This document shows, one piece after another, positions 24,310 through 58,004 of a stretch of DNA of 64,000 nt. Every line of letters starts with the position of its first letter. Within the stretch, counting starts at the first letter, position 1. Position numbers and translations under genes: made by a program. The stretch covers positions 14,670 through 78,669 of the forward strand of contig DXHZ01000093.1 in the NCBI GenBank assembly GCA_019113145.1, in the 5' to 3' direction. This stretch comes from Candidatus Avanaerovorax faecigallinarum. GTDB lineage: Bacteria > Bacillota > Clostridia > Peptostreptococcales > Anaerovoracaceae. Below the pieces are notes generated by a model. It had not been told where the DNA came from and did no database searches. It saw nothing but the letters and a program-made list of their open reading frames with translations.

Positions 24310-25746
24310 ATGCCGAGACACAGTTTTATCCAGATGTCGAAGCTGCCCAATGTCAAAGGGAGAATATCGTATATCACGAGCCATGCAAGGCAGGAAAATC
24401 TCTATGCCACCTACCGCACCGCTGATAATCAATTTTGGAGCAACCTTGCAAGGGAAAGCCAGCAGGAGTTTCAGCGCAGCGGCACAGAGGGCAAATGTAT
24501 TGAAGCAAGGGAACTGATTATCGCCTTGCCCGAAGTCTATACGCAATACGAGCCGCAGCAGGTACTCACGGACTTTACAGAGGAGTTCCGCAGGCGGTAC
24601 GGTGTGGAGTGCGTGTCCGCCCTCCACCACAACAAGCGCAAGACAAATTATCATATCCATCTGATTTTCAGCGAGAGGAGACTGCTCCCCGAACCCGATG
24701 TGAAGATTGCTTCCCGCAGCGTGTTCTTTGACGAGACTGGAAAGCGTGTCCGCACCAAAAAGGAAATCACGGGGGAGGACAGGCAGATACGGAAAGGCTG
24801 TACCGTCATCAAAAAAGGCGAGGTATACGAAAGCCATCTGTTTACTACCAAAGACACACGTTTTAAGGGAGAGCCGTTTCTCCGGGAGATAAAGGAAGTG
24901 TATACGGAACTTATTAACCGCCATATCTCTGATCCTGAGCAGCACTTAAAGGTATTTGATAAAAACAGCGTTTATCTTCCCACCAAGAAAATCGGCAAGA
25001 ACAATCCCAAAGAGGATGAAATCAAAGCCGACAATGCCGCAAGGCAGGAATGGAACAGGACAGCGGATATGGCGTTGTTATCAGGTATTTCCGAAGCAAA
25101 GATTTTAGAAGTCAAGCAGACAGAGATACACGAAAAGGCGAGCCAGTCTATCAAAAGCAAGGGCTGGCTTCCCAATCTGTTCCGCAGTATCGTAACCAAG
25201 GCAAAGGACTTCCTGCAAAGCCTAATCCGTGAACACGATATGCCGCCGAAGCCTGTCCTTGAGATAGATATGGCAGAGTTCCATACCATGCAAAAGCTGA
25301 TGATAAAGGCGCAGGATAAGGCGAAAGAAATCCGGCATTTGCAGGACACGGTACTTCCGAAGCTGAAACAGCAGCTTGCCGACACAAAAGGGATTTTTAA
25401 AGGTAAGGAGCGCAAGGCGCTCACAGAGCAGATACAGCGGACAGAAAAGGAAATCGCTGAAAAGCTGGATAAACTGCCCGATGTTCTGAAAGAGGACGGT
25501 TATCCCGATGTGCAGGCATTCATGGCAACCTACCGCAAGGCGGAGGCTGTCGTGGAGCAGTACAATCGTGACCTTGCCGCATGGGAGCGGCAGGTCAGGG
25601 AAAAACAGAAACCCGCCCAAAAAGAGCAGGCAAAGCCGCCTGAACGGGAGAGCGTACTGAAACGCCTGCGCCAGCTTCAAGCGGAGGGCAAGCAAAGAAA
25701 CCAGCCGAGACAGAGAAAGAAATCCTTTGACAGAGACAGCCGATAA
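24310..25746 (+). CDS. Mobilisation relaxase-like protein (HUH-type, MobA/MobL- or Pre-like)
   Basis: The N-terminal domain has SALHHNKRKTNYHIHLIFSER (H-x-H metal motif). The C-terminal half is a long charged coiled coil. It sits between the oriT-like hairpins and the cargo genes. Confidence 0.6.
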   Translation: MPRHSFIQMSKLPNVKGRISYITSHARQENLYATYRTADNQFWSNLARESQQEFQRSGTEGKCIEARELIIALPEVYTQYEPQQVLTDFTEEFRRRYGVECVSALHHNKRKTNYHIHLIFSERRLLPEPDVKIASRSVFFDETGKRVRTKKEITGEDRQIRKGCTVIKKGEVYESHLFTTKDTRFKGEPFLREIKEVYTELINRHISDPEQHLKVFDKNSVYLPTKKIGKNNPKEDEIKADNAARQEWNRTADMALLSGISEAKILEVKQTEIHEKASQSIKSKGWLPNLFRSIVTKAKDFLQSLIREHDMPPKPVLEIDMAEFHTMQKLMIKAQDKAKEIRHLQDTVLPKLKQQLADTKGIFKGKERKALTEQIQRTEKEIAEKLDKLPDVLKEDGYPDVQAFMATYRKAEAVVEQYNRDLAAWERQVREKQKPAQKEQAKPPERESVLKRLRQLQAEGKQRNQPRQRKKSFDRDSR

Positions 25747-46095: not shown

Positions 46096-47643
46096 ATGAG
46101 AGAAAAGGCTTTAAAGGCGCTGACAAAGGCCGCAGCGGACGGGATAGGAAAAATGTACGACGAAGGCAGATGCGCCGCTCTTTCCGAAATACTGGACGCC
46201 AGAGAAGCGAGAGCCGAGAGGCAGCAGGCTTTCATCGAGTCGGAGCGGCGGCAGTCCACAGCGTTGCAGCAGTTAGATGAGTCGCAGCAGTCCGGAAGTT
46301 GGCGGCAGTTTAGCGGCCCGCAGCAGTCCGGCAGCCTGCGGCAGTTTGCAGGCTCGCAAAAGCCGGAAGCGTTTTCACTCATCAGCTTTACATTAAACAT
46401 CGCGGGAGCAGTCAAAAGCTGCTCCCTGTTTTCGTGGGCATTTGACAGGGGCGTTGAGGTAATTGCCGAATCCCTTGCGGCAGCCGGAATTGAAACCGGA
46501 AAAGTAGAAATTACGGAGGGAATTGCAGGCTGCGAGTACACGGCGATTGCGTATGCAGAACCCGAAAGAGTAAAGCTCATAACCGCCGAAACAGAGGAGC
46601 TTCACCCGCTTGGGAGGATTTTCGATATAGATGTGATAAGACCTGACGGCGCAAAAGTCTCGAGAACGGATTTGGGCGCGACCGGCCGCACATGCATACT
46701 TTGCGGTAAACCAGTGTTTATATGCGGGCGGAGCAGAGCCCATTCCACCGAAGAGGTGCTCGAAAAGCAGATAGAGATAATGGCATCGGCCCGGGCAGAT
46801 GAGACGGCGCGCCGGATTTCCGGGCAGGCGGTAGATTCTCTTCTTGCGGAAGTCCACGTCGGCCCGAAGCCGGGCCTCGTGGACAGGTTCAACTCGGGAG
46901 CCCACAGGGATATGGACGAAAGCACTTTCATAAAGAGCGCCGAGTCGCTCCGCGGCTACTTCACGGACTGCGCATATGCGGGAATATATCTGGGCCTGAC
47001 GGGAGATGAAAGCATAACGGACAGCCTTGTCAGCCTCGGCAAAGAGGCTGAAAAGACCATGTTCGCCGCAACGGGCGGAATAAACACCCACAAAGGCGCT
47101 ATTTTCTCCATGGGCATTTTCGCCTGCGCCGCCGGAATGAGCGAGGCCGCAGAGGTGAGCCGGGGTGCTGAGTCGAGTAATACCCCGGGGAGCAGTTTCA
47201 GAGAAAACGTTTTGCATCTCGGTAAAATTCTGTCCGCCAAAACCGTCAGCACGCATACTGCCGGAAGCCGCGTAAAGAACGAATACGGAATCAGCGGCAT
47301 CAGAGGCGAAGCGGCGGCAGGTTATTCGACGGTTTTTGATACGGGTCTGGTCGTTTTAAAGGCGGAGCTTGCAGCAGGCGACGCGGAAGCCGCCGCGCTG
47401 AAGGCTTTGGCCGCAATAATCGCCGAAGCGGAAGACACCAACGTCATCGCCCGGGGCGGCACTGAGGCGGCAAAGTGGCTTAAATCCGAAGCTGCCGGCA
47501 TTTTGAAAAAATCCGGGGCTGCAGGCTTTGACGTAAGAGAGGCCCTTGCAGACCTCGACAAAGGGTGCATAGAGAAAAACATAAGCCCGGGCGGCAGCGC
47601 AGACCTTCTCGGACTGTGCCTGTTTGCGTCAGGGCGTGGCTGA
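46096..47643 (+). CDS. citG: Fused CitX (holo-ACP synthase) / CitG (triphosphoribosyl-dephospho-CoA synthase)
   Basis: The N-terminal half matches CitX (HPLGRIFDIDVI...CILCG). The C-terminal half matches CitG (KPGLVDRFNSGAHRDMD..., GINTHKGAIFS, ISPGGSADLL). Confidence 0.83.
   Translation: MREKALKALTKAAADGIGKMYDEGRCAALSEILDAREARAERQQAFIESERRQSTALQQLDESQQSGSWRQFSGPQQSGSLRQFAGSQKPEAFSLISFTLNIAGAVKSCSLFSWAFDRGVEVIAESLAAAGIETGKVEITEGIAGCEYTAIAYAEPERVKLITAETEELHPLGRIFDIDVIRPDGAKVSRTDLGATGRTCILCGKPVFICGRSRAHSTEEVLEKQIEIMASARADETARRISGQAVDSLLAEVHVGPKPGLVDRFNSGAHRDMDESTFIKSAESLRGYFTDCAYAGIYLGLTGDESITDSLVSLGKEAEKTMFAATGGINTHKGAIFSMGIFACAAGMSEAAEVSRGAESSNTPGSSFRENVLHLGKILSAKTVSTHTAGSRVKNEYGISGIRGEAAAGYSTVFDTGLVVLKAELAAGDAEAAALKALAAIIAEAEDTNVIARGGTEAAKWLKSEAAGILKKSGAAGFDVREALADLDKGCIEKNISPGGSADLLGLCLFASGRG
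46283..46353 (+). repeat. 36-bp in-frame tandem duplication inside the CitX half
   Basis: CGCAGCAGTCCGGAAGTTGGCGGCAGTTTAGCGGC (46283-46317) and CGCAGCAGTCCGGCAGCCTGCGGCAGTTTGCAGGC (46319-46353), encoding QQSGSWRQFSGP / QQSGSLRQFAGS. Confidence 0.8.
47588..47624 (+). repeat. 37-bp direct repeat, left copy (functional 3' end of citXG)
   Basis: CGGGCGGCAGCGCAGACCTTCTCGGACTGTGCCTGTT matches 50515-50551 at 36 of 37 positions. Confidence 0.9.
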
Positions 47644-48929: not shown

Positions 48930-49011
48930 CTTATCGCACTATTCAAGCCAATTATAACACATAAAGAAAACCGCTTCCATCTTCGGGCTGCGGATTGAAA
49001 TTGAACTTACC

Positions 49012-49119
49012 TTGCGCACTGCTGAACGTTTTAGAAAAAATCATATTGCGCATCGTTGGCGTTTTTTGAAAATTTATCTTGCGCACTGTTTATATTTTTG
49101 ATAGAATATAAATTGCGTA
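49012..49119 (+). promoter_or_regulatory. Four phased TTGCGCA sites plus the promoter of the ATPase gene
   Basis: TTGCGCA at 49012, 49046 and 49079, and TTGCGTA at 49113, with spacing of 34, 33 and 34 bp. The third site doubles as a -35 (TTGCGC), 17 nt before TAGAAT (49102-49107). Confidence 0.5.
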
Positions 49120-49142
49120 TTAGCGGAAAGGGTGAGATTTCA

Positions 49143-50501
49143 ATGATTATAAAACGTAAAGTATATGACAAGCTTCTTAGCTGGAAAAATACGCACAAGG
49201 GAAAGAAGGCTGTTCTGATAGAGGGAGCCAGACGCATCGGAAAGTCGACGATAGCTGAAGAATTTGCACGTAATGAATATAGATCCTACATTCTGGTAGA
49301 CTTCAATCTCGCTTCAAAGAACGTGCGGAATCTGTTCGACGATCTCACCAATCTTGACATTTTCTTTCAGGCTTTGTCGCTGGAATATAATACGCGTCTT
49401 TACCGGAGAGAGAGCCTGATTATATTCGACGAAATCCAGAAGTTTCCCAAGGCACGTGAGGCGGTAAAGTACCTCGTGGCAGACGGACGCTACGACTACC
49501 TGGAAACAGGTTCGCTCATATCTATCCGGGAGAGCGTGGAGAACATCACTATTCCATCGGAGGAGCGGAAATTGAAGATGTATCCGCTGGACTTCGAGGA
49601 GTTTGCGGAATTCATGGGAGAAGAGATTCTGCTGGAGCATATAAGAGACTGCTGGGAGAAAAAAGTGCCCCTCGAAAGACCGATTCACGGCAGGGCGATG
49701 CGCCTTTTCAAGGAGTATATGCTCGTGGGCGGAATGCCTCAGGCTGTACTGGCGTATAAGGAAAACGACAGAGATTTTGCGGCGGCCGATATTGAGAAGA
49801 GAGACATTCTGGAACTGTACCGCGACGATATAAAAAAGTCGGCGAAGAGATATAGCTCCAAAGTATCGGCGGTATTTGAAAACATACCGGGATACCTGTC
49901 AAAGCATGAAAAAAAGATTGTGCTCAGCGAAATAGACAAAAACGGAACCTTCGATAAATATGACGAGCCGCTCTTCTGGCTGGATGATTCCATGATATGC
50001 AATCTCTGCTACAGGTGCAGTGATCCGAACGTAGGATTCGCACTTAACATGGAAAATTCATCCGTAAAATGCTACATGGGCGATACCGGACTTCTCGTAA
50101 GTCTTGCCTTTGGAGAAAACGAACTTGCAGAAAACAATCTGTATAAACAGATTATGGAGGGAAGACTTTCCATAAATCAGGGCATGCTTTACGAAAACGC
50201 CATAGCTCAGATGATTATTGCTAAAGGGAAGAAATTGTACTTTTACACCAGATACAACCGGGATAAGCACAGAAACGACATCGAAATAGACTTTCTTCTT
50301 TCCAATGACAGCAAAGTCAACTTCAAGATTATGCCGCTTGAGGTGAAATCATCGACCAATTACTCGGCATCGTCACTCGGCGAGTTCAGCAAGATGTACA
50401 AGAGGAGGATAAGCGAATCATACATTATTCACCCGAAAAACCTGTCAGTGACGGTAGAGGTTACCAAGATACCTCCATATATGTTTTTTGCGGCATTTTA
50501 A
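49143..50501 (+). CDS. AAA-family ATPase with DUF4143-type C-terminal domain
   Basis: MIIKRKVYDKLLSWK...AVLIEGARRIGKSTI (Walker A), IIFDEIQ (Walker B). The C-terminal region is typical of the AAA_14/DUF4143 architecture. Confidence 0.85.
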   Translation: MIIKRKVYDKLLSWKNTHKGKKAVLIEGARRIGKSTIAEEFARNEYRSYILVDFNLASKNVRNLFDDLTNLDIFFQALSLEYNTRLYRRESLIIFDEIQKFPKAREAVKYLVADGRYDYLETGSLISIRESVENITIPSEERKLKMYPLDFEEFAEFMGEEILLEHIRDCWEKKVPLERPIHGRAMRLFKEYMLVGGMPQAVLAYKENDRDFAAADIEKRDILELYRDDIKKSAKRYSSKVSAVFENIPGYLSKHEKKIVLSEIDKNGTFDKYDEPLFWLDDSMICNLCYRCSDPNVGFALNMENSSVKCYMGDTGLLVSLAFGENELAENNLYKQIMEGRLSINQGMLYENAIAQMIIAKGKKLYFYTRYNRDKHRNDIEIDFLLSNDSKVNFKIMPLEVKSSTNYSASSLGEFSKMYKRRISESYIIHPKNLSVTVEVTKIPPYMFFAAF

Positions 50502-50514
50502 AAGACGGGTGAGA

Positions 50515-50551
50515 CGGGCGGCAGCGCAGACCTTCTGGGACTGTGCCTGTT
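50515..50551 (+). repeat. 37-bp direct repeat, right copy (orphan citG 3' fragment)
   Basis: In frame it reads GGSADLLGLCLFSAAALRKLNVNLTESG-stop. The terminator at 50646-50671 follows it. Confidence 0.9.
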
Positions 50552-50645
50552 CTCGGCTGCGGCTTTACGAAAACTTAACGTAAATTTAACCGAATCGGGA
50601 TAGACAGTTTTCTGAATACATATGAATATTGTAGATAAACAGAAT

Positions 50646-50671
50646 AAAAGCGGGGATGACCCCGCTTTTTC
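50646..50671 (+). terminator. Rho-independent terminator (probably the ancestral citXG terminator)
   Basis: AAAAGCGGGG / CCCCGCTTTT with loop ATGA and a T-run. Confidence 0.7.
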
Positions 50672-50686
50672 TGTAATTCTTACGTA
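50659..50686 (+). promoter_or_regulatory. Sigma-I-type promoter candidate upstream of sigI-rsgI
   Basis: ACCCCG (50659-50664), N18, CGTA (50683-50686), followed by TTCTATA. It has the same bipartite motif and spacing as 52292-52319. Reported sigma-I promoters have a C-rich -35 and a CGWA -10. Confidence 0.45.
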
Positions 50687-50713
50687 TTCTATAGTAAAGA
50701 GGAGACCGTCGCC

Positions 50714-51439
50714 ATGAAGGACGAACACAGAATAGTCGAGCAGGTGAATGCTGCCAGAAAAGACAGAGCAGCTGCGGACAGTCTTATAAGAGAATATATG
50801 CCCTTTATAAAATCCGAAACGGCGCGATTCATGGGCAGACCTCCTGTGGAAGGAGAAGACGATGAGCTGAGCATAGCCATGATTGCCTTTCATGAGGCGA
50901 TAGTGTCATATTCTGCAGACAGAGGAGCTTTCCTGAAATTTGCGGCAATGATTATAAAAAGCAGGCTTATAGATTTTAGCAGAAAAGAGCAGAGGCATAA
51001 AACCGTAATATCACTGGATACTCCTTCTGACGACGAAGGAGGCACCATTGGAGAAACAATTGCCGACGAACGGGACTATCAGGACGAAGTGGTGACGAGA
51101 GAGGCGACTCGAAAAGAAATAGAGGAACTTACGGCTGAGATGGCAAAGTTCGGCGTAAGCCTTACCGATGTTGCGGAAAACTGCCCGAAGCAGGACAGAA
51201 CTCTTAACGCCTGTAAAAGGGCCCTTAAGTACGCCATAGATAATCATGAAATCATGAAGGATTTTCTCGCTTCGAGGAAGCTGCCCATAAGCAGTCTGGC
51301 GGCAGGGAGCGGCGTTGAGAAAAAAACTCTTGAAAGACACAGAAAGTATATGGTGGCCCTCATGCTGATTTATACTAACGGATTTGAGATAATAAGAGGT
51401 CATCTGAGACATATGGCTGAGGGGGTGAGTGCAAAATGA
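50714..51439 (+). CDS. sigI: RNA polymerase sigma-I factor
   Basis: The pattern DDELSIAMIAFHEAIVSYS...FAAMIIKSRLIDFSRKE...FGVSLTDVAENCPKQDRTLNA...KLPISSLAAGSGVEKKTLERHRKYMVALMLI parallels B. subtilis SigI. Confidence 0.82.
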   Translation: MKDEHRIVEQVNAARKDRAAADSLIREYMPFIKSETARFMGRPPVEGEDDELSIAMIAFHEAIVSYSADRGAFLKFAAMIIKSRLIDFSRKEQRHKTVISLDTPSDDEGGTIGETIADERDYQDEVVTREATRKEIEELTAEMAKFGVSLTDVAENCPKQDRTLNACKRALKYAIDNHEIMKDFLASRKLPISSLAAGSGVEKKTLERHRKYMVALMLIYTNGFEIIRGHLRHMAEGVSAK

Positions 51440-52278
51440 AATATCTGGTAATGGAGTGCCGCCCTGGCTGCGCGGTTCTGCTGGATGAAGAGGGACGCTT
51501 CCTGAAGGCTGTAAATCCCGGATATCAGGTGGGACAAAGGGTGAATAATCCACGACTTATGGAAGATAAGATTCGCAGGAAGACAGGGAAGTGGATTATA
51601 AGCGGTGCAGCAGCCGTAGCAGCCTGCTTTATAGCGGTATTCGGTATAAATTACTATAACGACTACATGAGCACGTACTCTACCATATATATGAACATAA
51701 ACCCGTCCGTCAGCATAGACCTTAACCACAGTGGGAATGTGGTAGGTCTGGACGGCGAAAATGAAGACGGAGATATCCTCATAGAAGGTTACGATTACCG
51801 CGGGAAAGAAAAAACCGAAGTAGCCGACGATCTGGTGGACAAGGCGATAGACATGGGATTTCTGTCTGAAGGGGGAACAGTGTCATTCTCTATAGATGCT
51901 CCGGAAGAAGCTTTGTTCAGAGAATATGGAACCGAGATGAGAAACGAGGTCAGCCACCATCTGGAAAATGTGATTACAGTAAATATAGAGGTTGTAAAAT
52001 ATTCAGATGTGGAGAAACAGGATTCGGAACCTGAGACTGAACCTGAGACTCAGCGGAAGGAACCGCAGCCTCAGCCTCAGTCACAGTCGCAGCCGCAGAC
52101 CCAGACGAAGCCTCAGACTCAGACGAAGCCGACAACACCGGTGACTCCTAAGCCGTCGGGAGATTCGGGATATGGCAATTCCGGATACACCTCTCAAGGA
52201 AACAGCGGATATGATGATGACTCGAGAAACAGTGATTATGATGACTCGGAAAATAGCGGGTACGATAACGATGACTAA
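51436..52278 (+). CDS. rsgI: Anti-sigma-I factor RsgI-like protein with Asn-Pro juxtamembrane domain and Q/P linker plus SGY(D/N)-rich tail
   Basis: ATGA overlap with sigI. The RsgI_N-like start is MKYLVMECRPGCAVLLDEEGRFLKAV. It has one TM helix. Extracytoplasmic segment is IYMNINPSVSIDL... The tail is GDSGYGNSGYTSQGNSGYDDDSRNSDYDDSENSGYDNDD. Confidence 0.75.
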   Translation: MKYLVMECRPGCAVLLDEEGRFLKAVNPGYQVGQRVNNPRLMEDKIRRKTGKWIISGAAAVAACFIAVFGINYYNDYMSTYSTIYMNINPSVSIDLNHSGNVVGLDGENEDGDILIEGYDYRGKEKTEVADDLVDKAIDMGFLSEGGTVSFSIDAPEEALFREYGTEMRNEVSHHLENVITVNIEVVKYSDVEKQDSEPETEPETQRKEPQPQPQSQSQPQTQTKPQTQTKPTTPVTPKPSGDSGYGNSGYTSQGNSGYDDDSRNSDYDDSENSGYDNDD

Positions 52279-52291
52279 AAAAACAACGGCA

Positions 52292-52319
52292 ACCCCGTTT
52301 TTCGAAAGAGCTTTACGTA
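52292..52319 (+). promoter_or_regulatory. Sigma-I-type promoter candidate upstream of the lipoprotein-VTC-DUF4956-CotH genes
   Basis: ACCCCG (52292-52297), N18, CGTA (52316-52319), followed by ATCTATA. The -35 again lies in the descending arm of a small hairpin (AACGG/CCGTT). Confidence 0.45.
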
Positions 52320-52371
52320 ATCTATATGTACAAGGCAAAACTACAGAAAAAAACAGAAAGGAACCCTGATC

Positions 52372-53463
52372 ATGAAAACGAGAAAAAAACTATTAACAGC
52401 GGTATCTTCCCTGGCTATAGCGGCTATGGTTCTTCTGACAGGATGCGGCGGAACTGCACAGAGCGAAGTGCCTGAAGTAAACGAAACGGGAGTTATCACA
52501 TTAAGCGTAAATCCTGAAATTAAAATTGAATATGACAAAGACGGACTGGTTACAGGAATAACTGGAGCGAATGACGATGGAAAGGCTATAGTAGAGGCAT
52601 ATCCGGACTACATAGGGAAAGAATGCAGAACCGTTCTGGCCGAACTGATTGCGGAGATTAACGAGGCCGGATATTTTGTAGACGATATCGATGGACACGA
52701 GAAGAACATAGTCATCCAGCTGGAGCCGGGTTCGATTATGCCGAGCGAGGATTTTCTCACAGTGATAAGTGACAGCACCAGGGAAGCCGTGAAGAATCTC
52801 AAGCTCGGATCAGGAATAGTAACTATCGACGATGACGATTACGATCAGTCTTATGCAAAAGAGGGGCAGCCTTCGAGATATATCACTCTTGCCAAGGCGC
52901 AGGAAATAGCCCTTGCTCAGGCAGGTGTAAGCGCTAAAGACGCAGTTTTCGAAGATAAGGAATTTGATCATGACGATGGAACCCCTGTGTTTGAGCTTGA
53001 GTTCAAGGCAGGAGGGGTGGAGTACGAATATGATGTACATGCGGTGACCGGAAAGGTTATAAAGGCGCAGCATGAAAAGATTAAGACCCCTTCATCTTCA
53101 GCAGGATCAGCCGCTTCTTCATCTTCCGCTCAGAAACCGGCAACATCGGGAGGAACGGGCGGAGCCGCGTATCAGGATACGGATTATGGCCCGGGAAATG
53201 ATGGCGTAACCGACTACAATAACACCGATTACGGCCCGAATAACGATGGCGTAACCGACTACCACTACACCGACTATAACAGCGGTAATTCTGCATCCGG
53301 CGGAGTCAGCTCCAATCATGGCGGAGGCGACTCCGGATATGACAACGGAGATTCCGGATACAATAATTCCGGCTACGGCAACACAGGCTATGACGACGGC
53401 AACACCGGTTATGACGATGGCGACTCCGGATACGACAACGGAGATTCCGGATATGACAACTAA
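52372..53463 (+). CDS. Lipoprotein with RsgI-like Asn-Pro domain, PepSY domain and Tyr/Asp/Gly-rich repeat tail
   Basis: LLTGC lipobox. VITLSVNPEIKIEYDKDGLVTGITGANDDGKAIVEAY aligns with the RsgI ectodomain. The PepSY-like segment is ITLAKAQEIALAQAGVSAKDAVFEDKEFDHDDGTPVFELEF...VHAVTGKVIK. The tail has TDYGPxNDGVTDY x2 and (DSGYDNG)n. Confidence 0.8.
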   Translation: MKTRKKLLTAVSSLAIAAMVLLTGCGGTAQSEVPEVNETGVITLSVNPEIKIEYDKDGLVTGITGANDDGKAIVEAYPDYIGKECRTVLAELIAEINEAGYFVDDIDGHEKNIVIQLEPGSIMPSEDFLTVISDSTREAVKNLKLGSGIVTIDDDDYDQSYAKEGQPSRYITLAKAQEIALAQAGVSAKDAVFEDKEFDHDDGTPVFELEFKAGGVEYEYDVHAVTGKVIKAQHEKIKTPSSSAGSAASSSSAQKPATSGGTGGAAYQDTDYGPGNDGVTDYNNTDYGPNNDGVTDYHYTDYNSGNSASGGVSSNHGGGDSGYDNGDSGYNNSGYGNTGYDDGNTGYDDGDSGYDNGDSGYDN

Positions 53464-54151
53464 CAATAATAACAGCACGAAACTGAGACATGAACTTAAG
53501 CACCGGATCAACCTGAGGGAAGATCTGGTGCTTTCCCAAAGGTTGAGAAAACTCTTTGAAAGAGACAGCCATTGCGGAACGGACGGCAGTTACCGTGTTA
53601 CCAGTCTGTATTTTGACACACCCTACGACGATGCGCTCCGGGATAAGCTAAGCGGAATCAGCAGAAGAGAGAAGTTCAGAATCAGGTACTATGGGGACAA
53701 TCCGACGTTTATAAAACTGGAAAAGAAATCGAAGATAAACGGGCTTTCGGAAAAGCTGAGCGTTGTCCTTAGACCGGATGAAGCGGAGAGAATACTGTCA
53801 GGAGATATAAGCTTCATGCTTGACAGCGGAAAGCATCTTCTGGAAGAACTCTACTCGAAGATGAACGGTGAAGGACTGGCGCCAAAGACGGTTGTCTCAT
53901 ACAGCCGGGAGGCTTTTGTATATGCGCCGGGGAACGTGAGAATCACGCTGGACAGAGATGTGAGAACAAGTCTGGGCTCGACGGACTTTCTGAATCCAGA
54001 CGTATTCAGAATGCCGGTGATGGATGGTATAACGGTGCTGGAAGTGAAATATGACAGATTTCTTCCGGAAATAGCAGCAATGGCGGTTCAGGTTCCGGGA
54101 AGAAGAGCATCTGCATGTTCGAAGTACGCCCTTTGCAGGCGGTTTGATTAA
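53453..54151 (+). CDS. VTC domain-containing protein (polyphosphate polymerase-like, CYTH/triphosphate tunnel fold)
   Basis: LRHELKHRINLREDLVLSQRLRKLF...GSYRVTSLYFDTPYDDALRDK...FRIRYY...LEKKSK is the bacterial VTC-domain pattern. Its ATG overlaps the lipoprotein gene by 11 nt. Confidence 0.85.
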   Translation: MTTNNNNSTKLRHELKHRINLREDLVLSQRLRKLFERDSHCGTDGSYRVTSLYFDTPYDDALRDKLSGISRREKFRIRYYGDNPTFIKLEKKSKINGLSEKLSVVLRPDEAERILSGDISFMLDSGKHLLEELYSKMNGEGLAPKTVVSYSREAFVYAPGNVRITLDRDVRTSLGSTDFLNPDVFRMPVMDGITVLEVKYDRFLPEIAAMAVQVPGRRASACSKYALCRRFD

Positions 54152-54172
54152 AAATTAAGGAGGAGGGCCGGT

Positions 54173-54844
54173 ATGACCTTTCGCGACATATTTAAATCGG
54201 GATTTATGGAGAATATGACTGCCGTATTGATGCTTGATATGGTAACGGCGCTTGCCCTGGCATTTCTTCTGGGTCTTTACATTTTCTTTATCTACAGGAA
54301 AACATACAGCGGCGTAATGTATTCTCCAGGATTTGGCGTGACGCTGATAGGACTTGCTCTCATAACGACCATGCTTATTATGACTGTAGCAAGTAATGTG
54401 GTTCTGTCCCTCGGTATGGTTGGAGCTCTTTCCATAGTGAGGTTTCGCGCTGCAATAAAAGAACCGGTGGACATACTGTTTCTCTTCTGGAGCATAGCGG
54501 TGGGAATAGTGCTGGCTGCAGGGCTCATCCCCCTTGCGGTTTTTGGAAGCATTTTCATAGGAATCGTGCTGCTTTTGTTCGCATCGAAAAAAACCCCGGA
54601 CACCCCGTACATTCTCATAATCCACTGTGAGGACGAGAGAAGGGAGACGGAGACCAAAGAATATGTAAAAAAACGGGTGAAGAAGATGAACCTGAAGAGC
54701 AAAAGCGTGTCTGACGGAATCATAGAGCTTAACTATGAGGTCAGGCTGATTGACGACGACAGCTCCTTCGTGAATAAGCTTCAGAAAACAGACGGAGTAT
54801 CACGGGTGGTTCTGGTGTCGTACAACGGAGATTACATGGTTTAA
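54173..54844 (+). CDS. DUF4956 domain-containing membrane protein
   Basis: It has 4-5 TM helices with GALSIVRFRAAIKEPVDILFLFW and a soluble ~75-aa C-terminal domain. It is a usual partner of VTC and CotH genes. Confidence 0.85.
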   Translation: MTFRDIFKSGFMENMTAVLMLDMVTALALAFLLGLYIFFIYRKTYSGVMYSPGFGVTLIGLALITTMLIMTVASNVVLSLGMVGALSIVRFRAAIKEPVDILFLFWSIAVGIVLAAGLIPLAVFGSIFIGIVLLLFASKKTPDTPYILIIHCEDERRETETKEYVKKRVKKMNLKSKSVSDGIIELNYEVRLIDDDSSFVNKLQKTDGVSRVVLVSYNGDYMV

Positions 54845-54872
54845 CGACTTCTGCAGGCGCAGGTGATGTAAA

Positions 54873-56294
54873 TTGATAAAACACAGACACATCGACAAAA
54901 TCTGCATATGTGCGGCGGCAGCGGCAGTTCTGATAACGGTTGTCCTTTATTTCGGGGAAGACATGGGAATCCAGCGGGCGTCAGAAAATCCGGGATACTC
55001 CTACAGGCTTTTTGACGACAGCAGGGTTCACACCGTAAACATTCTCTGCGACGATTGGGAAGAATTTCTCAAAGAGGCTCCGGAGGAGGAATATATAAGC
55101 TGCGCCGTTGAAATAGACGGGGAAAGGTTCGAGAATGTGGGACTCAGAGCCAAGGGCAATAATTCTCTAAGTCTTACGGAGGAATACGGCCTCTCGAGAT
55201 ACAGCCTGAAACTGGAGTTCGACCATTTTACGGACGGAGGAAATTACTACGGACTGGACAAATTCTCTCTGGATGCTTCGTTTCAGGACAACAGCTACCT
55301 TAAGACATACATGGCCTACGATATGATGGATTTCATGGGCGTGGCCTCGCCTCTCTGCAGCTTCACAGACGTTTTCGTAAACGGGGAACCGTGGGGGCTG
55401 TTTCTCGCTGTGGAGGAGCCTGAGGAGGCCTTTGTCCGGAGAAATTTCGGAAGAAATCACGGACAGCTGTACAAGCCTGACTACAGGTCTTTGGAAGATG
55501 AAAACGGAGATATAGCCTTAAAATATCTTGGAGCCGATGAGAAGCTGTATCCGGGCATATTCGAAAACGCAAAGTTCAAAACAGATAAGGGCGACAGAAT
55601 GAGAGTCATCAAGGCTCTTGAGATCCTCGATTCCGGTGAGAATATCGAAAGAGCCGTGGATACAGAACAGACACTGCGGTATTTCGTTGTATCGGTATTT
55701 GTCATGAACTGGGACAGCTATGCGGGGCATACGGGTCACAACTATTTTCTCTATGAAAAAGACGGAATTCTGACCATTCTGCCGTGGGACTACAATCTGG
55801 CTTTCGGAACCTATGCCTTCGGAATGTCCGAACCGATAAGGGACACGGAGGTTCTCATAAACTGGCCCGTGGACACGCCTGCTGAAGGTGATGTGATGCT
55901 TAACAGACCGCTCTACCACAACCTGATGAAGAACGATAAATATTTTCGGCGATACCACGAGCTGTTCAGACGGTTCCTATCAGAATACTTTTTCAGCGGC
56001 GAGTTCGAGAAGACTTTACAGGATGCGGAATCCCTGATAGCCCCTCACGTGGAAAGTGATCCTACAGCCTTCTGTTCCCGCGAAGATTTTCGCCTTGCGG
56101 CAGACACCCTCTATGAAGTGTGCATGCTGCGGGCCGAGAGCATAGAAAAACAGCTTTCGGGAGAACTGCCTTCAACGATTAAAGAGCAAGAGGGTTTCAC
56201 GGGAGAATATGTGGACTGTTCTGCCGTGGACATACGCGATCTGGGAGATTTCGGAGATTTGGAGACTGCCGCGGCGAGGACTGCAGGCAGGTAA
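54873..56294 (+). CDS. CotH kinase family protein with N-terminal signal anchor
   Basis: TTG start. TM anchor is ICICAAAAAVLITVVLYF. CotH-like core is GLRAKGNNSL...YSLKLEFDHF...LDKFSLDASFQDNSYLKTYMAYD...FVNGEPWGLFLAVEEPE...NYFLY. Confidence 0.86.
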   Translation: MIKHRHIDKICICAAAAAVLITVVLYFGEDMGIQRASENPGYSYRLFDDSRVHTVNILCDDWEEFLKEAPEEEYISCAVEIDGERFENVGLRAKGNNSLSLTEEYGLSRYSLKLEFDHFTDGGNYYGLDKFSLDASFQDNSYLKTYMAYDMMDFMGVASPLCSFTDVFVNGEPWGLFLAVEEPEEAFVRRNFGRNHGQLYKPDYRSLEDENGDIALKYLGADEKLYPGIFENAKFKTDKGDRMRVIKALEILDSGENIERAVDTEQTLRYFVVSVFVMNWDSYAGHTGHNYFLYEKDGILTILPWDYNLAFGTYAFGMSEPIRDTEVLINWPVDTPAEGDVMLNRPLYHNLMKNDKYFRRYHELFRRFLSEYFFSGEFEKTLQDAESLIAPHVESDPTAFCSREDFRLAADTLYEVCMLRAESIEKQLSGELPSTIKEQEGFTGEYVDCSAVDIRDLGDFGDLETAAARTAGR

Positions 56295-56389
56295 TCTAAA
56301 GACGTTAAGTTGTATACACAGAATTAACTGGACTATAGTCTAATAAACTTAAATTTCTTAAAAATTTGTGAATAGACGTGCCTAACCTG

Positions 56390-56419
56390 TTGACCCGCGC
56401 CGCAAGACGGGAGTAGAAT
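56390..56419 (+). promoter_or_regulatory. Sigma-A-type promoter candidate for the MFS transporter gene
   Basis: TTGACC (56390-56395), 18-nt spacer, TAGAAT (56414-56419). Confidence 0.4.
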
Positions 56420-56471
56420 TACTCTCGGAGGGGCGTTTTTGGGATCAGCAAGGAAAGGAGAGCAGTCGGAA

Positions 56472-57719
56472 ATGAAAAATATTGACTCTGAAGGCGCTTA
56501 CCGCGTCTATTCCTATCGATGGGTAGTCCTTGCGATATACGGGCTGTCCACCGCTGTGATTCAGCTTATGTGGACCACATTCTTTTCAATTACCACTCAG
56601 GCATGGCAGTATTACGGCTTTACAGATGCGCAGGAAGGGGAAAATGCCATCAGCCTTTTGTCCATCATATTTATGGCGGGAATGATAGTCCTGTCCATAC
56701 CCGTAATGGCAGCCTTTGAGAAATACGGATTCAAAAAAGCCGTAGGCTTCGGCGTGGTGCTTACGGGAATATGCGCCATCGTCCGCGGAGTATTCGGAGA
56801 CAGTTACACGGCAGTTCTCGTCGCGACGGTGGGATTTGCGGTGGCTCAGCCGTTCCTGCTCAATTCGCCGGGCCTGGTTGCGGGCAAATGGTTCCCTGAA
56901 AACGAGAGAGCCACGGCCAACAGCGTGGGACTTCTCTGCAGCTACGTGGGCATGTGCCTGGGACTTTTGCTGACTCTGGTGATGCTGGACGCGGGAATGA
57001 CAATAAAGGGTATGCTTACCGCTTACGGCGTTCTGGGCATCGTTACCGCAGTGCTGTTCGTGGCTTTTGTTAAGGAGAAACCGCCTACGCCGCCATGCGC
57101 GGAGGAAGACGCCGTCCGCGACGACTTCAAGAGCGGCATCAAAGGGGCCATGAAGAAGAAGGATTTTGTTCTGGCTCTCATAGTGTTCTTCTGTATGTTC
57201 GGAGTGTTCAATACGTTCTTCACCATGATAGAGCCGATTTTAAGGGAGCTCAGCGGCGACGCCGTCGATTCCACCCAGGTCGGAATTCTGGGAGTTGTAA
57301 TTCTCGTCTCAGGAATAATCGGAAGCGTCATAATATCCATGGTTTCCGACAAAGACAGACTCCAGCGCCGTCTGCCGTACGCTATCGGCGCCAACGTTAT
57401 AGGAACCGTGGGCCTCGTTATATTCATCTTTGCGGGCAACTTCACAATGATGCTCATAGCGTCACTGCTCTACGGAATATTTATCGTGGGAGCCGCCCCG
57501 CTTACGCTGACATTTGCAGCCGAGGCATCTTTCCCGACTTCGGAGGGAACGTCCGAGGGACTTCTCATGTGGGCCGGAAACGTTGCAGGCGTGATATTCT
57601 TAGGCGCGGCCAGCCTCTTCGGCAGCAACAAAGCCGTCATGATTGCGCTGGTTGCCGTTACGGTACTCTACCTGATACCGATGTTCATGGCAAAGGAAAC
57701 AAAACTTCAGAAGAAATAA
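56472..57719 (+). CDS. MFS transporter
   Basis: About 12 predicted TM helices. AGGAG lies upstream of the ATG at 56472. Confidence 0.85.
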   Translation: MKNIDSEGAYRVYSYRWVVLAIYGLSTAVIQLMWTTFFSITTQAWQYYGFTDAQEGENAISLLSIIFMAGMIVLSIPVMAAFEKYGFKKAVGFGVVLTGICAIVRGVFGDSYTAVLVATVGFAVAQPFLLNSPGLVAGKWFPENERATANSVGLLCSYVGMCLGLLLTLVMLDAGMTIKGMLTAYGVLGIVTAVLFVAFVKEKPPTPPCAEEDAVRDDFKSGIKGAMKKKDFVLALIVFFCMFGVFNTFFTMIEPILRELSGDAVDSTQVGILGVVILVSGIIGSVIISMVSDKDRLQRRLPYAIGANVIGTVGLVIFIFAGNFTMMLIASLLYGIFIVGAAPLTLTFAAEASFPTSEGTSEGLLMWAGNVAGVIFLGAASLFGSNKAVMIALVAVTVLYLIPMFMAKETKLQKK

Positions 57720-57724
57720 CTGGA

Positions 57725-57766
57725 AGAGCCCGCGCGCAGATGGTCTGCATGCGGGCTCTGTTTTAT
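57725..57766 (+). terminator. Rho-independent terminator after the MFS gene
   Basis: AGAGCCCGC / GCGGGCTCT 9-bp stem with an inner GCAGA/TCTGC pair, followed by GTTTTATCTT. Confidence 0.75.
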
Positions 57767-57786
57767 CTTCAAAAACGTTACAGGGC

Positions 57787-58004
57787 AAGATTTAAGGAAG
57801 TCTTCGACAATGAAACGGGTTTTCCGGGAAAATGTCGAAGGCTTTTTCGACATTTTTGACGAGAAAAGGAAATCTGCCGAAAAATCAAGCGAGTCATGCA
57901 GGTTTTTAACGTTGAAACTTCGGCAGAACTTGTAAATACAGCCTTAAAAGCCGAAAAAGCTTCGACAAAACCGCCGAAAACAGACGTCTTTGTCGAAGCG
58001 AAGC
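57787..58004 (+). repeat. Dispersed ~215-bp intergenic repeat, copy B
   Basis: It aligns with 33232-33448 (AAGGAAGTCTTCGACAATGA...GGCTTTTTCGACATTTTT...ATCTGCCGAAAAAT...AAGCCGAAAAAGCTTCGACA...CCGCCGAAAACAGA...CTTTGTCGAAGC). It is also located between convergent genes. Confidence 0.75.

Follow-up and report, generated by a model that had tools for sequence, protein, structure and literature searches.

The closest described relatives of the system analyzed here are the SigI–RsgI pair of Bacillus subtilis, which is deployed in envelope surveillance (Brunet 2022, PMC9732909; Brogan 2023, PMC10556640), and the SigI1-8/RsgI pairs of Clostridium thermocellum, which serve in biomass sensing (PMC4711584, PMC6056542, PMC10575876, PMC10328401). 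Our subject is a six-gene block in a 64,000-nucleotide (nt) stretch of Candidatus Avanaerovorax faecigallinarum (contig DXHZ01000093.1, positions 14,670 to 78,669 of the forward strand; hereafter the window). The block encodes, in this order, a SigI family sigma factor, its RsgI-type anti-sigma factor, a lipoprotein with a SEAL (RsgI_M) domain, a VTC-domain protein, a DUF4956 membrane protein and a CotH-family kinase (Table 1). Taken as a whole, it is probably best explained as a SigI/RsgI cassette of gut Clostridia, whose regulon comprises the cassette itself and the adjacent envelope operon. For the predicted regulatory architecture alone, i.e., a positively autoregulated SigI/RsgI pair with an output operon of its own next to it, our confidence is high.

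Like the B. subtilis system, this locus displays a sigI-rsgI bicistron, an RsgI in which a transmembrane (TM) helix and a SEAL domain precede a disordered C-terminal tail, a small predicted regulon of envelope genes, and putative promoters that combine a C-rich -35 element with a CG(A/T)A -10 element. However, the targets in B. subtilis are lytE, mreBH and bcrC, whereas here they would be the genes for the SEAL lipoprotein, VTC, DUF4956 and CotH. Moreover, the disordered regions of B. subtilis RsgI are depleted in aromatic residues and tolerate scrambling, whereas the tail seen here is a defined, Tyr-rich acidic repeat; and, unlike its B. subtilis counterpart, the regulon would include a copy of the sensor's own ectodomain. 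With the C. thermocellum systems the locus shares the (putatively) autoregulated sigI-rsgI operon, Asn-Pro autocleavage (here predicted), the CCCYYAAA-N13-14-CGWA promoter geometry, and the recovery of target promoters through their similarity to the sigI promoter. C. thermocellum also furnishes a precedent for sigma-I-controlled CotH in the form of cseP, which codes for an extracellular CotH-dockerin protein and is sigma-I6-dependent. The locus differs from these systems in that its sensor bears no carbohydrate-binding module and its output is not cellulosomal, in that a T-tract and PKQxRT stand in place of the A-tract and PKHRDS, and in that there is apparently one cassette (only one is seen, in the 64-kb window) rather than a family of paralogues.

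The case for a common regulator is centered on a bipartite motif, ACCCCG-N18-CGTA, found directly 5′ of both sigI and the lipoprotein gene (hereafter the putative promoters PsigI and Plipo). A pattern search of both strands of the window recovers exactly two sites, at 50659-50686 and 52292-52319 on the + strand, against a chance expectation of 0.06 matches on average, and none of 100 dinucleotide-preserving shuffles reaches two. The sequence (T/A)TCTATA lies directly 3′ of both cores, and the overall form at both positions is gACCCCG-(N)TTTT-N12-CGTA-(T/A)TCT. The end of the first core is separated by 27 nt from the ATG of sigI (50714) and that of the second by 52 nt from the ATG of the lipoprotein gene (52372). 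A relaxed search of the window (N17-19, CG[TGA]A) uncovers no third copy, its sole extra match being an unrelated one inside a coding sequence at 24749. Thus, the original prediction, made from the letters of the window and claiming two identically spaced copies with their tails and no third, is confirmed in its coordinates as well. When read as CCC-GN-TTT-N14-CGTA, both sites have the same geometry as published sigma-I promoters, for which the consensus is ACCCCC--AA-N15-CGAA in the Bacillales and CCCYYAAA-N13-14-CGWA for C. thermocellum sigma-I3, and the 27-nt distance from CGTA to the sigI ATG fits the short sigI leaders reported there (PMC4711584). We also considered sigma-70 promoters at the PsigI and Plipo sites and rejected them, there being no acceptable -35/-10 pair at either. 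A good sigma-70-like pair is present only before the downstream gene for a major facilitator superfamily (MFS) transporter (56390-56419); as this gene thereby has a promoter of its own, the unit ends at CotH.

The comparative evidence extends this picture beyond a single genome. A VTC protein search of species-representative genomes yielded 18 loci (loci, including those from the further searches below, are designated by L numbers), half of which (L002-L010) keep the order sigI-rsgI-lipoprotein-VTC-DUF4956-CotH, with SigI proteins 50-99% identical to the query. These nine are uncultured Clostridia, including Candidatus Merdivicinus. The same block recurs around all the homologs of DUF4956, SigI and the lipoprotein that were looked up in a large protein collection (P0035, P0045, P0220, P0150, P0066, P0083 and P0256). 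At least 14 divergent gut Clostridia possess it, their SigI proteins being as little as 50% identical. Since the neighboring genes are different each time, the six genes behave as a unit. In the motif-aligned upstream regions, ACCCCG, the T-run, CGTA and (T/A)TCT hardly vary, no constraint is visible in the intervening and surrounding sequence, and an A/T-rich tract lies ~12-17 nt 5′ of the motif; the N18 spacing stays constant across the aligned orthologous sites while the flanking intergenic DNA has diverged. The N18 motif precedes sigI in L004-L008, L010, L027, L029, L031, L032 and L033, L009 being the sole examined locus without it; there, the copy before the lipoprotein gene is intact. 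Indeed, the lipoprotein gene is preceded by the motif in all 13 motif-checked loci that have sigI-rsgI, with minor variants such as N19 in L027, ACCCCT in L031, CGGA in L008 and GCCCCG in L007. Besides L009, Gallibacter intestinalis (L011) provides a second natural control: it possesses lipoprotein-VTC-DUF4956-CotH, and sigI-rsgI and the motif are both absent.

A weight matrix was derived from 18 sites, with leave-one-out scores of 10-40 bits, and scanned over both strands of the window and the 18 loci (357 kb); at a threshold of 12 bits, nothing emerges beyond the sites used for training and a single one spaced by 19 nt. Three loci outside its training (L031, L032 and L033, the last from a Lachnoclostridium isolate) likewise have both copies of the motif. 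When metagenomes were scanned blind with the pattern ACCCCGNTTTN14CGTAWTCT, 91 matches in 80 loci were obtained, of which 57 lie directly 5′ of a SEAL-lipoprotein homolog and 16 directly 5′ of a SigI homolog, while a further seven are located at contig ends with sigI-rsgI immediately upstream. Hence, 80 of the 91 are at sigI or lipoprotein genes; among the remaining 11, ~6 precede other secreted proteins or a sigma factor and ~5 are chance-like. This answers the check proposed with the original prediction, as the motif is not dispersed over intergenic DNA. The conservation at both sites, the lack of further sites in the 357 kb, the blind scan and the Gallibacter control together strongly favor the originally predicted autoregulated SigI/RsgI module with the downstream operon as its putative output.

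Several unusual configurations were encountered in the course of these searches. Tandem copies of the motif follow rsgI in L046:6404-6655 (three, 105-115 nt apart), and in L085:1163-1275 and L097:1889-2002 (two, 81 nt apart). In L102, L103, L108 and L109 the gene order is lipoprotein-sigI-rsgI, with the motif before the lipoprotein gene, so that the lipoprotein, a putative mimic of the sensor (see below), would be the first gene product of an autoregulated operon. A long-read metagenome contig (L034:6362-7001) has a sigI cut to ~140 codons directly before the lipoprotein gene, with rsgI and Plipo deleted and PsigI kept, as the result of either a natural deletion or faulty assembly. A serine-recombinase-like reading frame, as read from the sequence, ends ~190 nt upstream of sigI in L009:6900-7343. 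Motif matches with typical flanks also occur before other genes in L039, L088, L113, L062 and L042, whose products include a secreted, Pro/Glu/Ala-rich acidic protein, a small PepSY lipoprotein whose tail reads DWDDRYDD, an extracytoplasmic function (ECF)-like sigma factor and a 705-residue dockerin-like-repeat protein; sigma-I of other organisms may thus have additional targets among these genes.

The leader 3′ of Plipo contains a conserved element, AAGGCAAAAC, at 52332-52341. In the form (GTGT)AAGGCAAAAC, it is seen ~10-15 nt after the CGTAATCT of lipoprotein promoters and also in the leaders of L005, L027, L029, L031 and L033. This element, for which no Rfam family match was obtained, could be a transcript start region or a regulatory site. 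A known RNA element in the leaders was likewise sought, and Rfam gave nothing relevant across 49000-58000.

Turning to the proteins, SigI combines a sigma-2 domain (Sigma70_r2 being its only Pfam domain) with the SigI-specific C-terminal domain, and has neither a sigma-4 domain nor, by hydropathy, a TM segment. Its alignment with C. thermocellum SigI1 (8I23, E = 5e-22) and SigI6 (8I24) is full-length and takes in this C-terminal domain. SigI and RsgI are predicted to be co-translated. RsgI shows the full layout of a SEAL-type anti-sigma factor, namely an N-terminal, sigma-binding RsgI_N-like domain, a single TM helix (residues 53-71), a SEAL (RsgI_M) domain with an Asn-Pro motif, a Pro/Gln/Thr linker and a C-terminal Asp/Tyr/Ser/Gly repeat tail. 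Asn89-Pro90 is the predicted autocleavage motif: the structure 8HER_B (named "Anti-sigma factor" in the PDB) begins at the Pro aligned with residue 90, and the RsgI orthologs that were read retain the motif. Asn-Pro autocleavage of the SEAL domain has been described previously (PMC10328401 and PMC10556640).

Probably the most informative component of the block, and one that was not recognized in the original prediction, is the lipoprotein with its likeness to the RsgI ectodomain. It features a signal peptide with a lipobox (MKTRKK...LLTG-C25, with G24 and C25 invariant in 35 homologs), a SEAL domain at ~40-170, a PepSY domain at 171-231 and a disordered Asp/Tyr/Asn/Gly repeat tail at 243-363. 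In the AlphaFold 2 (AF2) model, residues 36-242 have a pLDDT (the predicted local distance difference test) score of ~90 and the tail scores <50; strands beta1 (40-45) and beta2 (49-54), modeled with pLDDT >90, flank N47-P48, the predicted autocleavage site. The corresponding VNPE is kept in every lipoprotein ortholog read and is invariant or nearly so in a 35-sequence alignment. The top Foldseek match is the SEAL domain of B. subtilis RsgI (8T9N, E = 2e-6, TM-score 0.76), and periplasmic domains of C. thermocellum RsgI proteins are also among the best PDB matches. The lipoprotein is thus a paralogue of the RsgI ectodomain and a predicted mimic of it. Fusions with a SEAL domain followed by a PepSY domain, without an anti-sigma domain and with the catalytic hairpin residues kept, were reported earlier (Brogan 2023, PMC10556640). 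However, those were described without a disordered region, whereas the lipoproteins here have a long repeat tail matching that of the cognate RsgI; that study also reports no lipid anchor, SigI control or CotH neighborhood for them.

The tail itself is a distinctive element. In the 35-sequence alignment, the lipoprotein tail has as its family consensus a 15-residue unit, TDYGPNNDGVTDYND, and the repeat matches no Pfam family, even at E up to 10. The tails of RsgI and the lipoprotein have far more 3-/4-mers in common within a genome than between genomes (permutation p ~1e-4, which is only indicative because the loci are phylogenetically related), and in Lachnoclostridium sp. An131 (GCA_002160825.1, contig NFLI01000025), a carrier of the short cassette, near-identical TDYGPNNDGVTDYND arrays, of 5-6 copies each, are present on both proteins. 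A full HMMER search with the tail from the window against 1.84 billion cluster representatives gave only 55 matches; among 20 that were checked, 18 are SEAL proteins, either of the lipoprotein type or of the RsgI type.

The genes for the lipoprotein, VTC, DUF4956 and CotH are tightly packed or overlapping. The VTC protein has no TM segment by hydropathy and is predicted to be cytoplasmic. A profile of 16 orthologs matches the catalytic domain of Vtc4 (3G3Q, E = 6e-8), with R12/K16, R76/R78 and E197 aligned with R196/K200, R264/R266 and E426 of Vtc4; of these, K16, R76, R78 and E197 are invariant among the orthologs, and the combined change R264A/R266A/E426N inactivates Vtc4 (PMC9911596). To judge from the alignment, the protein resembles a polyphosphate polymerase of the triphosphate-tunnel type with its catalytic residues intact. 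The long open reading frame at 53318-54151 was rejected as the VTC gene in favor of the likelier start at 53453, which gives a protein of 232 residues, in line with the gene calls at most of the orthologous loci.

In DUF4956, 4-5 hydrophobic helices are combined with an ACT-like domain at the C-terminus, of the form beta-alpha-beta-beta-alpha-beta. Its NCBIfam match to MgtC/SapB (PRK09977) is weak and far below the cut-off of that model (E = 1.7e-6), and its top Foldseek match is the C-terminal domain of MgtC (2LQJ, E = 1.4e-3), covering the C-terminal domain only. The AF2 model has a pLDDT of ~80 in this domain and is poor in the membrane part (62). A VTC-type channel role for DUF4956 was considered and is not supported, as all its Foldseek hits are ACT-like and none is a VTC chain; the low confidence of the membrane model makes this a weak test. 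CotH matches B. cereus CotH (5JD9, E = 1e-10) and keeps the NWD (N-x-D), HNY and PWDYN (PWDY[DN]) motifs. We take the Asp residues of these motifs to be catalytic (D228 and D251 of B. subtilis CotH). Its single N-terminal TM anchor (residues 10-28) is conserved in all orthologs, and the positive charge on the N side of the anchor predicts an outward-facing kinase domain. These features agree with the topology that had been proposed from the letters of the window, with a cytoplasmic VTC, a polytopic DUF4956 and a signal-anchored CotH outside the membrane. The accompanying proposal of a resemblance to the eukaryotic VTC synthase/translocase did not hold up: DUF4956 matches MgtC/SapB, and no similarity to a Vtc1-type channel was found. 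Compared with the eukaryotic VTC complex (Vtc4/Vtc3/Vtc1; PMC9911596), the predicted tunnel domain is homologous, with the key Arg/Lys/Glu residues kept, and a membrane protein is likewise associated; however, the VTC protein here has neither an SPX domain nor a fused or Vtc1-type TM channel, and its partner is MgtC-like.

The last three families have been seen together before, as the co-occurrence of CotH, polyphosphate-polymerase and DUF4956 genes has been published for the accessory genes of Gram-positive Pel operons (Whitfield 2020, PMC7112168). Both in those loci, which may also include DUF4832 (see also bioRxiv 2024.04.20.589940), and in the block studied here, the same three families are adjacent, CotH is secreted or outward-facing with its catalytic residues, VTC is cytoplasmic, and DUF4956 joins an ACT-like domain to about four TM helices. 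They differ in that the present block lacks pel, GGDEF and deacetylase genes, is under putative SigI/RsgI control, and has an additional lipoprotein with SEAL, PepSY and repeat tail that is translationally coupled to VTC. Our search of the literature found no paper linking SigI/RsgI with VTC, DUF4956 or this SEAL lipoprotein.

The output genes show considerable variation across loci. In a Lachnoclostridium-type variant (L033, L035 and L036), sigI-rsgI-lipoprotein-CotH and both promoter motifs are present without VTC and DUF4956; hence, CotH needs neither to be encoded alongside. Apart from CotH, no output gene keeps its place beside the lipoprotein in all the variant cassettes surveyed near this clade. 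Conversely, VTC, DUF4956 and CotH are adjacent in all four distant Clostridia loci examined (L012, L014, L015 and L017), in the company of GGDEF, polysaccharide-deacetylase and large unknown genes, with no sigI and no tail-bearing proteins. The broadly conserved pairing is thus that of SigI/RsgI with the SEAL lipoprotein; in this clade, CotH is the predicted constant effector, and VTC/DUF4956 a frequent add-on. In one further set of metagenomic loci (L047:7019-9388, also L092 and L096), a PepSY lipoprotein under a SigI-type motif is followed by MBOAT and GDSL/SGNH genes in lieu of VTC-DUF4956-CotH. Such MBOAT plus GDSL/SGNH pairs are typical of the O-acylation of wall polymers.

By analogy with the RsgI proteins of B. 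subtilis and C. thermocellum, the pre-cleaved halves of the SEAL domain would come apart when the RsgI tail is pulled or engaged, whereupon a site-2 protease encoded elsewhere would cut RsgI and free SigI; SigI-bound RNA polymerase would then fire both PsigI (positive autoregulation) and Plipo (output). The anatomy of the lipoprotein suggests that, once lipid-anchored, it would most likely meet the same extracellular partner as the sensor and serve in feedback or as a decoy; it may also be a working substrate or partner of the outward-facing CotH kinase. VTC and the MgtC-like DUF4956 would constitute a frequent but dispensable membrane-associated phosphate/polyphosphate module of the same response. 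Overall, we favor the view that the system is an envelope-surveillance response that remodels or phosphorylates components of the cell surface. One could go further and envision the Asp/Tyr repeat tail (TDYGPNNDGVTDYND and its GYD/NYD variants) as an extracellular phospho-acceptor or ligand module common to RsgI and the lipoprotein, which CotH phosphorylates on both, possibly with a supply via VTC/DUF4956, thereby altering how the tails interact with the wall or matrix and, in turn, the force pulling the SEAL halves apart. This would amount to an extracellular feedback loop on regulated intramembrane proteolysis, with the lipoprotein as a releasable decoy, but we regard this extension as distinctly improbable.

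A number of observations weigh against the proposed cassette or qualify its details. The SigI score is below the NCBIfam equivalog cut-offs despite an E-value of 4e-54, and RsgI_N is weak (18.2 bits against a Pfam cut-off of 25). The sites here have a T-tract where published promoters have an A-tract, the exception being sigI of L010 with AAAAA, and this SigI clade shows PKQ[DEQ]RT without exception in the place of the PKHRDS of C. thermocellum SigI1 and SigI6 (CPKQDR in the window, 51178-51195, residues ~156-161). The clade thus lacks the full set of minor-groove contact residues, K-H-R-x-S, with which SigI1 and SigI6 read the A-tract and of which the His of PKHRDS enters the minor groove (PMC10575876). 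Gln is not one of the replacements examined in the published work on this contact. Recognition may therefore differ in its details, and we record the T-tract and PKQ[DEQ]RT as an apparent correlated deviation. The locus without PsigI, L009, indicates that autoregulation is not obligatory. In the window, no convincing terminator was found between rsgI and the lipoprotein gene, so that read-through from PsigI could contribute to the expression of the operon. Further from the clade, the lipoprotein is followed in metagenome loci by MBOAT plus GDSL or by small unknown proteins. The notion of the Asp/Tyr tail as a universal CotH substrate was rejected, as tails of this kind are absent from the proteins of the distant VTC-DUF4956-CotH loci. 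Finally, we infer promoter function and SigI dependence from sequence, and the decoy, substrate and envelope-remodeling roles are conjectural.

One could ask whether the motif is a SigI promoter at all, or instead the operator of another regulator, the promoter of another alternative sigma factor, or a terminator hairpin combined with a chance CGTA. The missing canonical His of the A-tract contact in this SigI clade could be read in this way, as could the position of the first ACCCCG inside a terminator-like stem. In this regard, the original prediction had placed both -35 elements in the 3′ arm of a small hairpin. The first stem is real: it is terminator-like on both strands, its 3′ arm carries the -35-like ACCCCG, and it probably terminates the upstream AAA_14/DUF4143 gene. 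However, the close relative L004 alone retains it, and L005-L008 and L010 lack it. The second stem, at Plipo, is insignificant (-3.9 kcal/mol, with 44 of 200 shuffles folding equally well), and neither stem is conserved in the orthologous promoters; we accordingly rejected hairpins as promoter features. As it is ACCCCG, the spacing and CGTA that are conserved and not the hairpins, as the blind metagenome matches concentrate so strongly at sigI and lipoprotein genes, as the motif is lost together with sigI-rsgI in L011, and as the geometry fits experimentally defined sigma-I promoters, a motif unconnected with SigI is hardly credible.

With the SigI/RsgI cassette as the preferred reading of the regulation, two further proposals concern what its output does. 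In one, put forward with the original prediction, polyphosphate or some other phosphodonor would be produced by VTC, moved across the membrane by DUF4956 and used by the extracytoplasmic CotH, as a bacterial analogue of the eukaryotic VTC synthase/translocase that feeds an ecto-kinase. No CotH is known to take polyphosphate as a donor, and the cassettes without VTC/DUF4956 also speak against such a pathway, as does DUF4956, which is MgtC/SapB-like, has a cytoplasmic domain of the ACT-like kind and gave no detected similarity to the channel of Vtc1/Vtc4 (a weak structural test). Furthermore, the authors of an S. intermedius study judged polyphosphate to be probably cytoplasmic (bioRxiv 2024.04.20.589940). 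Set against this are the Vtc4 catalytic residues kept in VTC, the disposition of a soluble VTC, a polytopic DUF4956 and an outward CotH, the adjacency of the three genes both in the four distant loci and beside Pel operons (PMC7112168), and the puzzle of a Gram-positive surface ecto-kinase without an obvious supply of ATP. On balance, we hold export of this kind to be rather unlikely. The other proposal separates the two halves of the output: VTC and DUF4956 would form an intracellular, membrane-tethered, MgtC-like buffer of polyphosphate/phosphate and Mg2+/ATP that is turned on in envelope stress, while CotH and the lipoprotein act apart at the surface, all sharing a promoter but not a pathway. 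The likeness of DUF4956 to MgtC, the uncoupling of VTC/DUF4956 from CotH in some cassettes and the view of the authors of the above study (bioRxiv 2024.04.20.589940) point in this direction. Yet the adjacency of the three genes is conserved across the GGDEF/deacetylase loci and the Pel loci of the literature, i.e., in very different regulatory contexts, which argues for a functional link between VTC, DUF4956 and CotH, and the overlap of the VTC start with the lipoprotein stop suggests stoichiometric co-production. Such a buffer is possible, if on the unlikely side.

The cassette bears on several wider questions. VTC-DUF4956-CotH is a widespread, uncharacterized set in Firmicutes, present for instance in the Pel biofilm loci of streptococci and clostridia, and the substrates and phosphate donor of extracellular CotH kinases are likewise uncharacterized. 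The predictable SigI/RsgI switch, with its recognizable promoter, would offer a first regulatory handle on this set, and the SEAL-PepSY lipoprotein, whose tail copies that of the sensor, is a concrete candidate for a CotH partner or substrate. The mechanotransduction model of RsgI would also be extended in two respects: the "disordered" tail of the sensor is a conserved repeat rather than disorder alone, and the regulon appears to express a mimic of its own sensor. The carriers are abundant Clostridia of the human and chicken gut.

Table 1. Features of the six-gene block and its surroundings (positions in the window)
Feature	Position	Strand	Details
Strong GC hairpin	50646..50669	.	AAAAGCGGGG-ATGA-CCCCGCTTTT; -19.4 kcal/mol, z = -6.2; flagged by terminator scan
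PsigI, putative sigma-I-type promoter	50659..50693	+	ACCCCGCTTTTTCTGTAATTCTTACGTATTCTATA; ACCCCG 50659-50664, T-tract 50666-50670, CGTA 50683-50686, then TTCTATA
sigI, sigma-I family sigma factor, 241 aa	50714..51439	+	NCBIfam SigI models, E = 4e-54; Pfam Sigma70_r2
rsgI, anti-sigma-I factor, 280 aa	51436..52278	+	RsgI_M 73.5 bits; start overlaps sigI stop (ATGA)
DNA tandem repeat in rsgI tail	52199-52266	+	Tandem-repeat finder
Plipo, second putative sigma-I-type promoter	52292..52326	+	ACCCCGTTTTTCGAAAGAGCTTTACGTAATCTATA; ACCCCG 52292-52297, T-tract 52298-52302, CGTA 52316-52319, then ATCTATA
Lipoprotein gene, 363 aa	52372..53463	+	Pfam RsgI_M (E = 2e-14) plus PepSY
Lipoprotein tail repeats	53182..53457	+	45-nt unit x2 (TDYGPNNDGVTDYNN) 53182-53273; 21-nt unit x4 (DGDSGYD) 53375-53457; tandem-repeat finder
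VTC-domain protein, 232 aa	53453..54151	+	Pfam VTC, E = 1.9e-34; start overlaps lipoprotein stop by 11 nt
DUF4956 membrane protein, 223 aa	54173..54844	+	Pfam DUF4956, E = 2e-10
CotH-family kinase, 473 aa	54873..56294	+	Pfam CotH, E = 2.6e-56, 191.9 bits; TTG start, AGGTGA ribosome-binding site

Two observations concern the surroundings of the cassette. A gene for an AAA_14/DUF4143 ATPase adjoins it both in the window (49056-50501, upstream) and in Gallibacter (L011:13065-14291, downstream), which is probably a coincidence or reflects a mobile neighbor. Further upstream, at 46096-47643, lies a gene for a CitX/CitG fusion, preceded by one for citrate lyase ligase; these belong to ordinary metabolism and are unrelated to the cassette.

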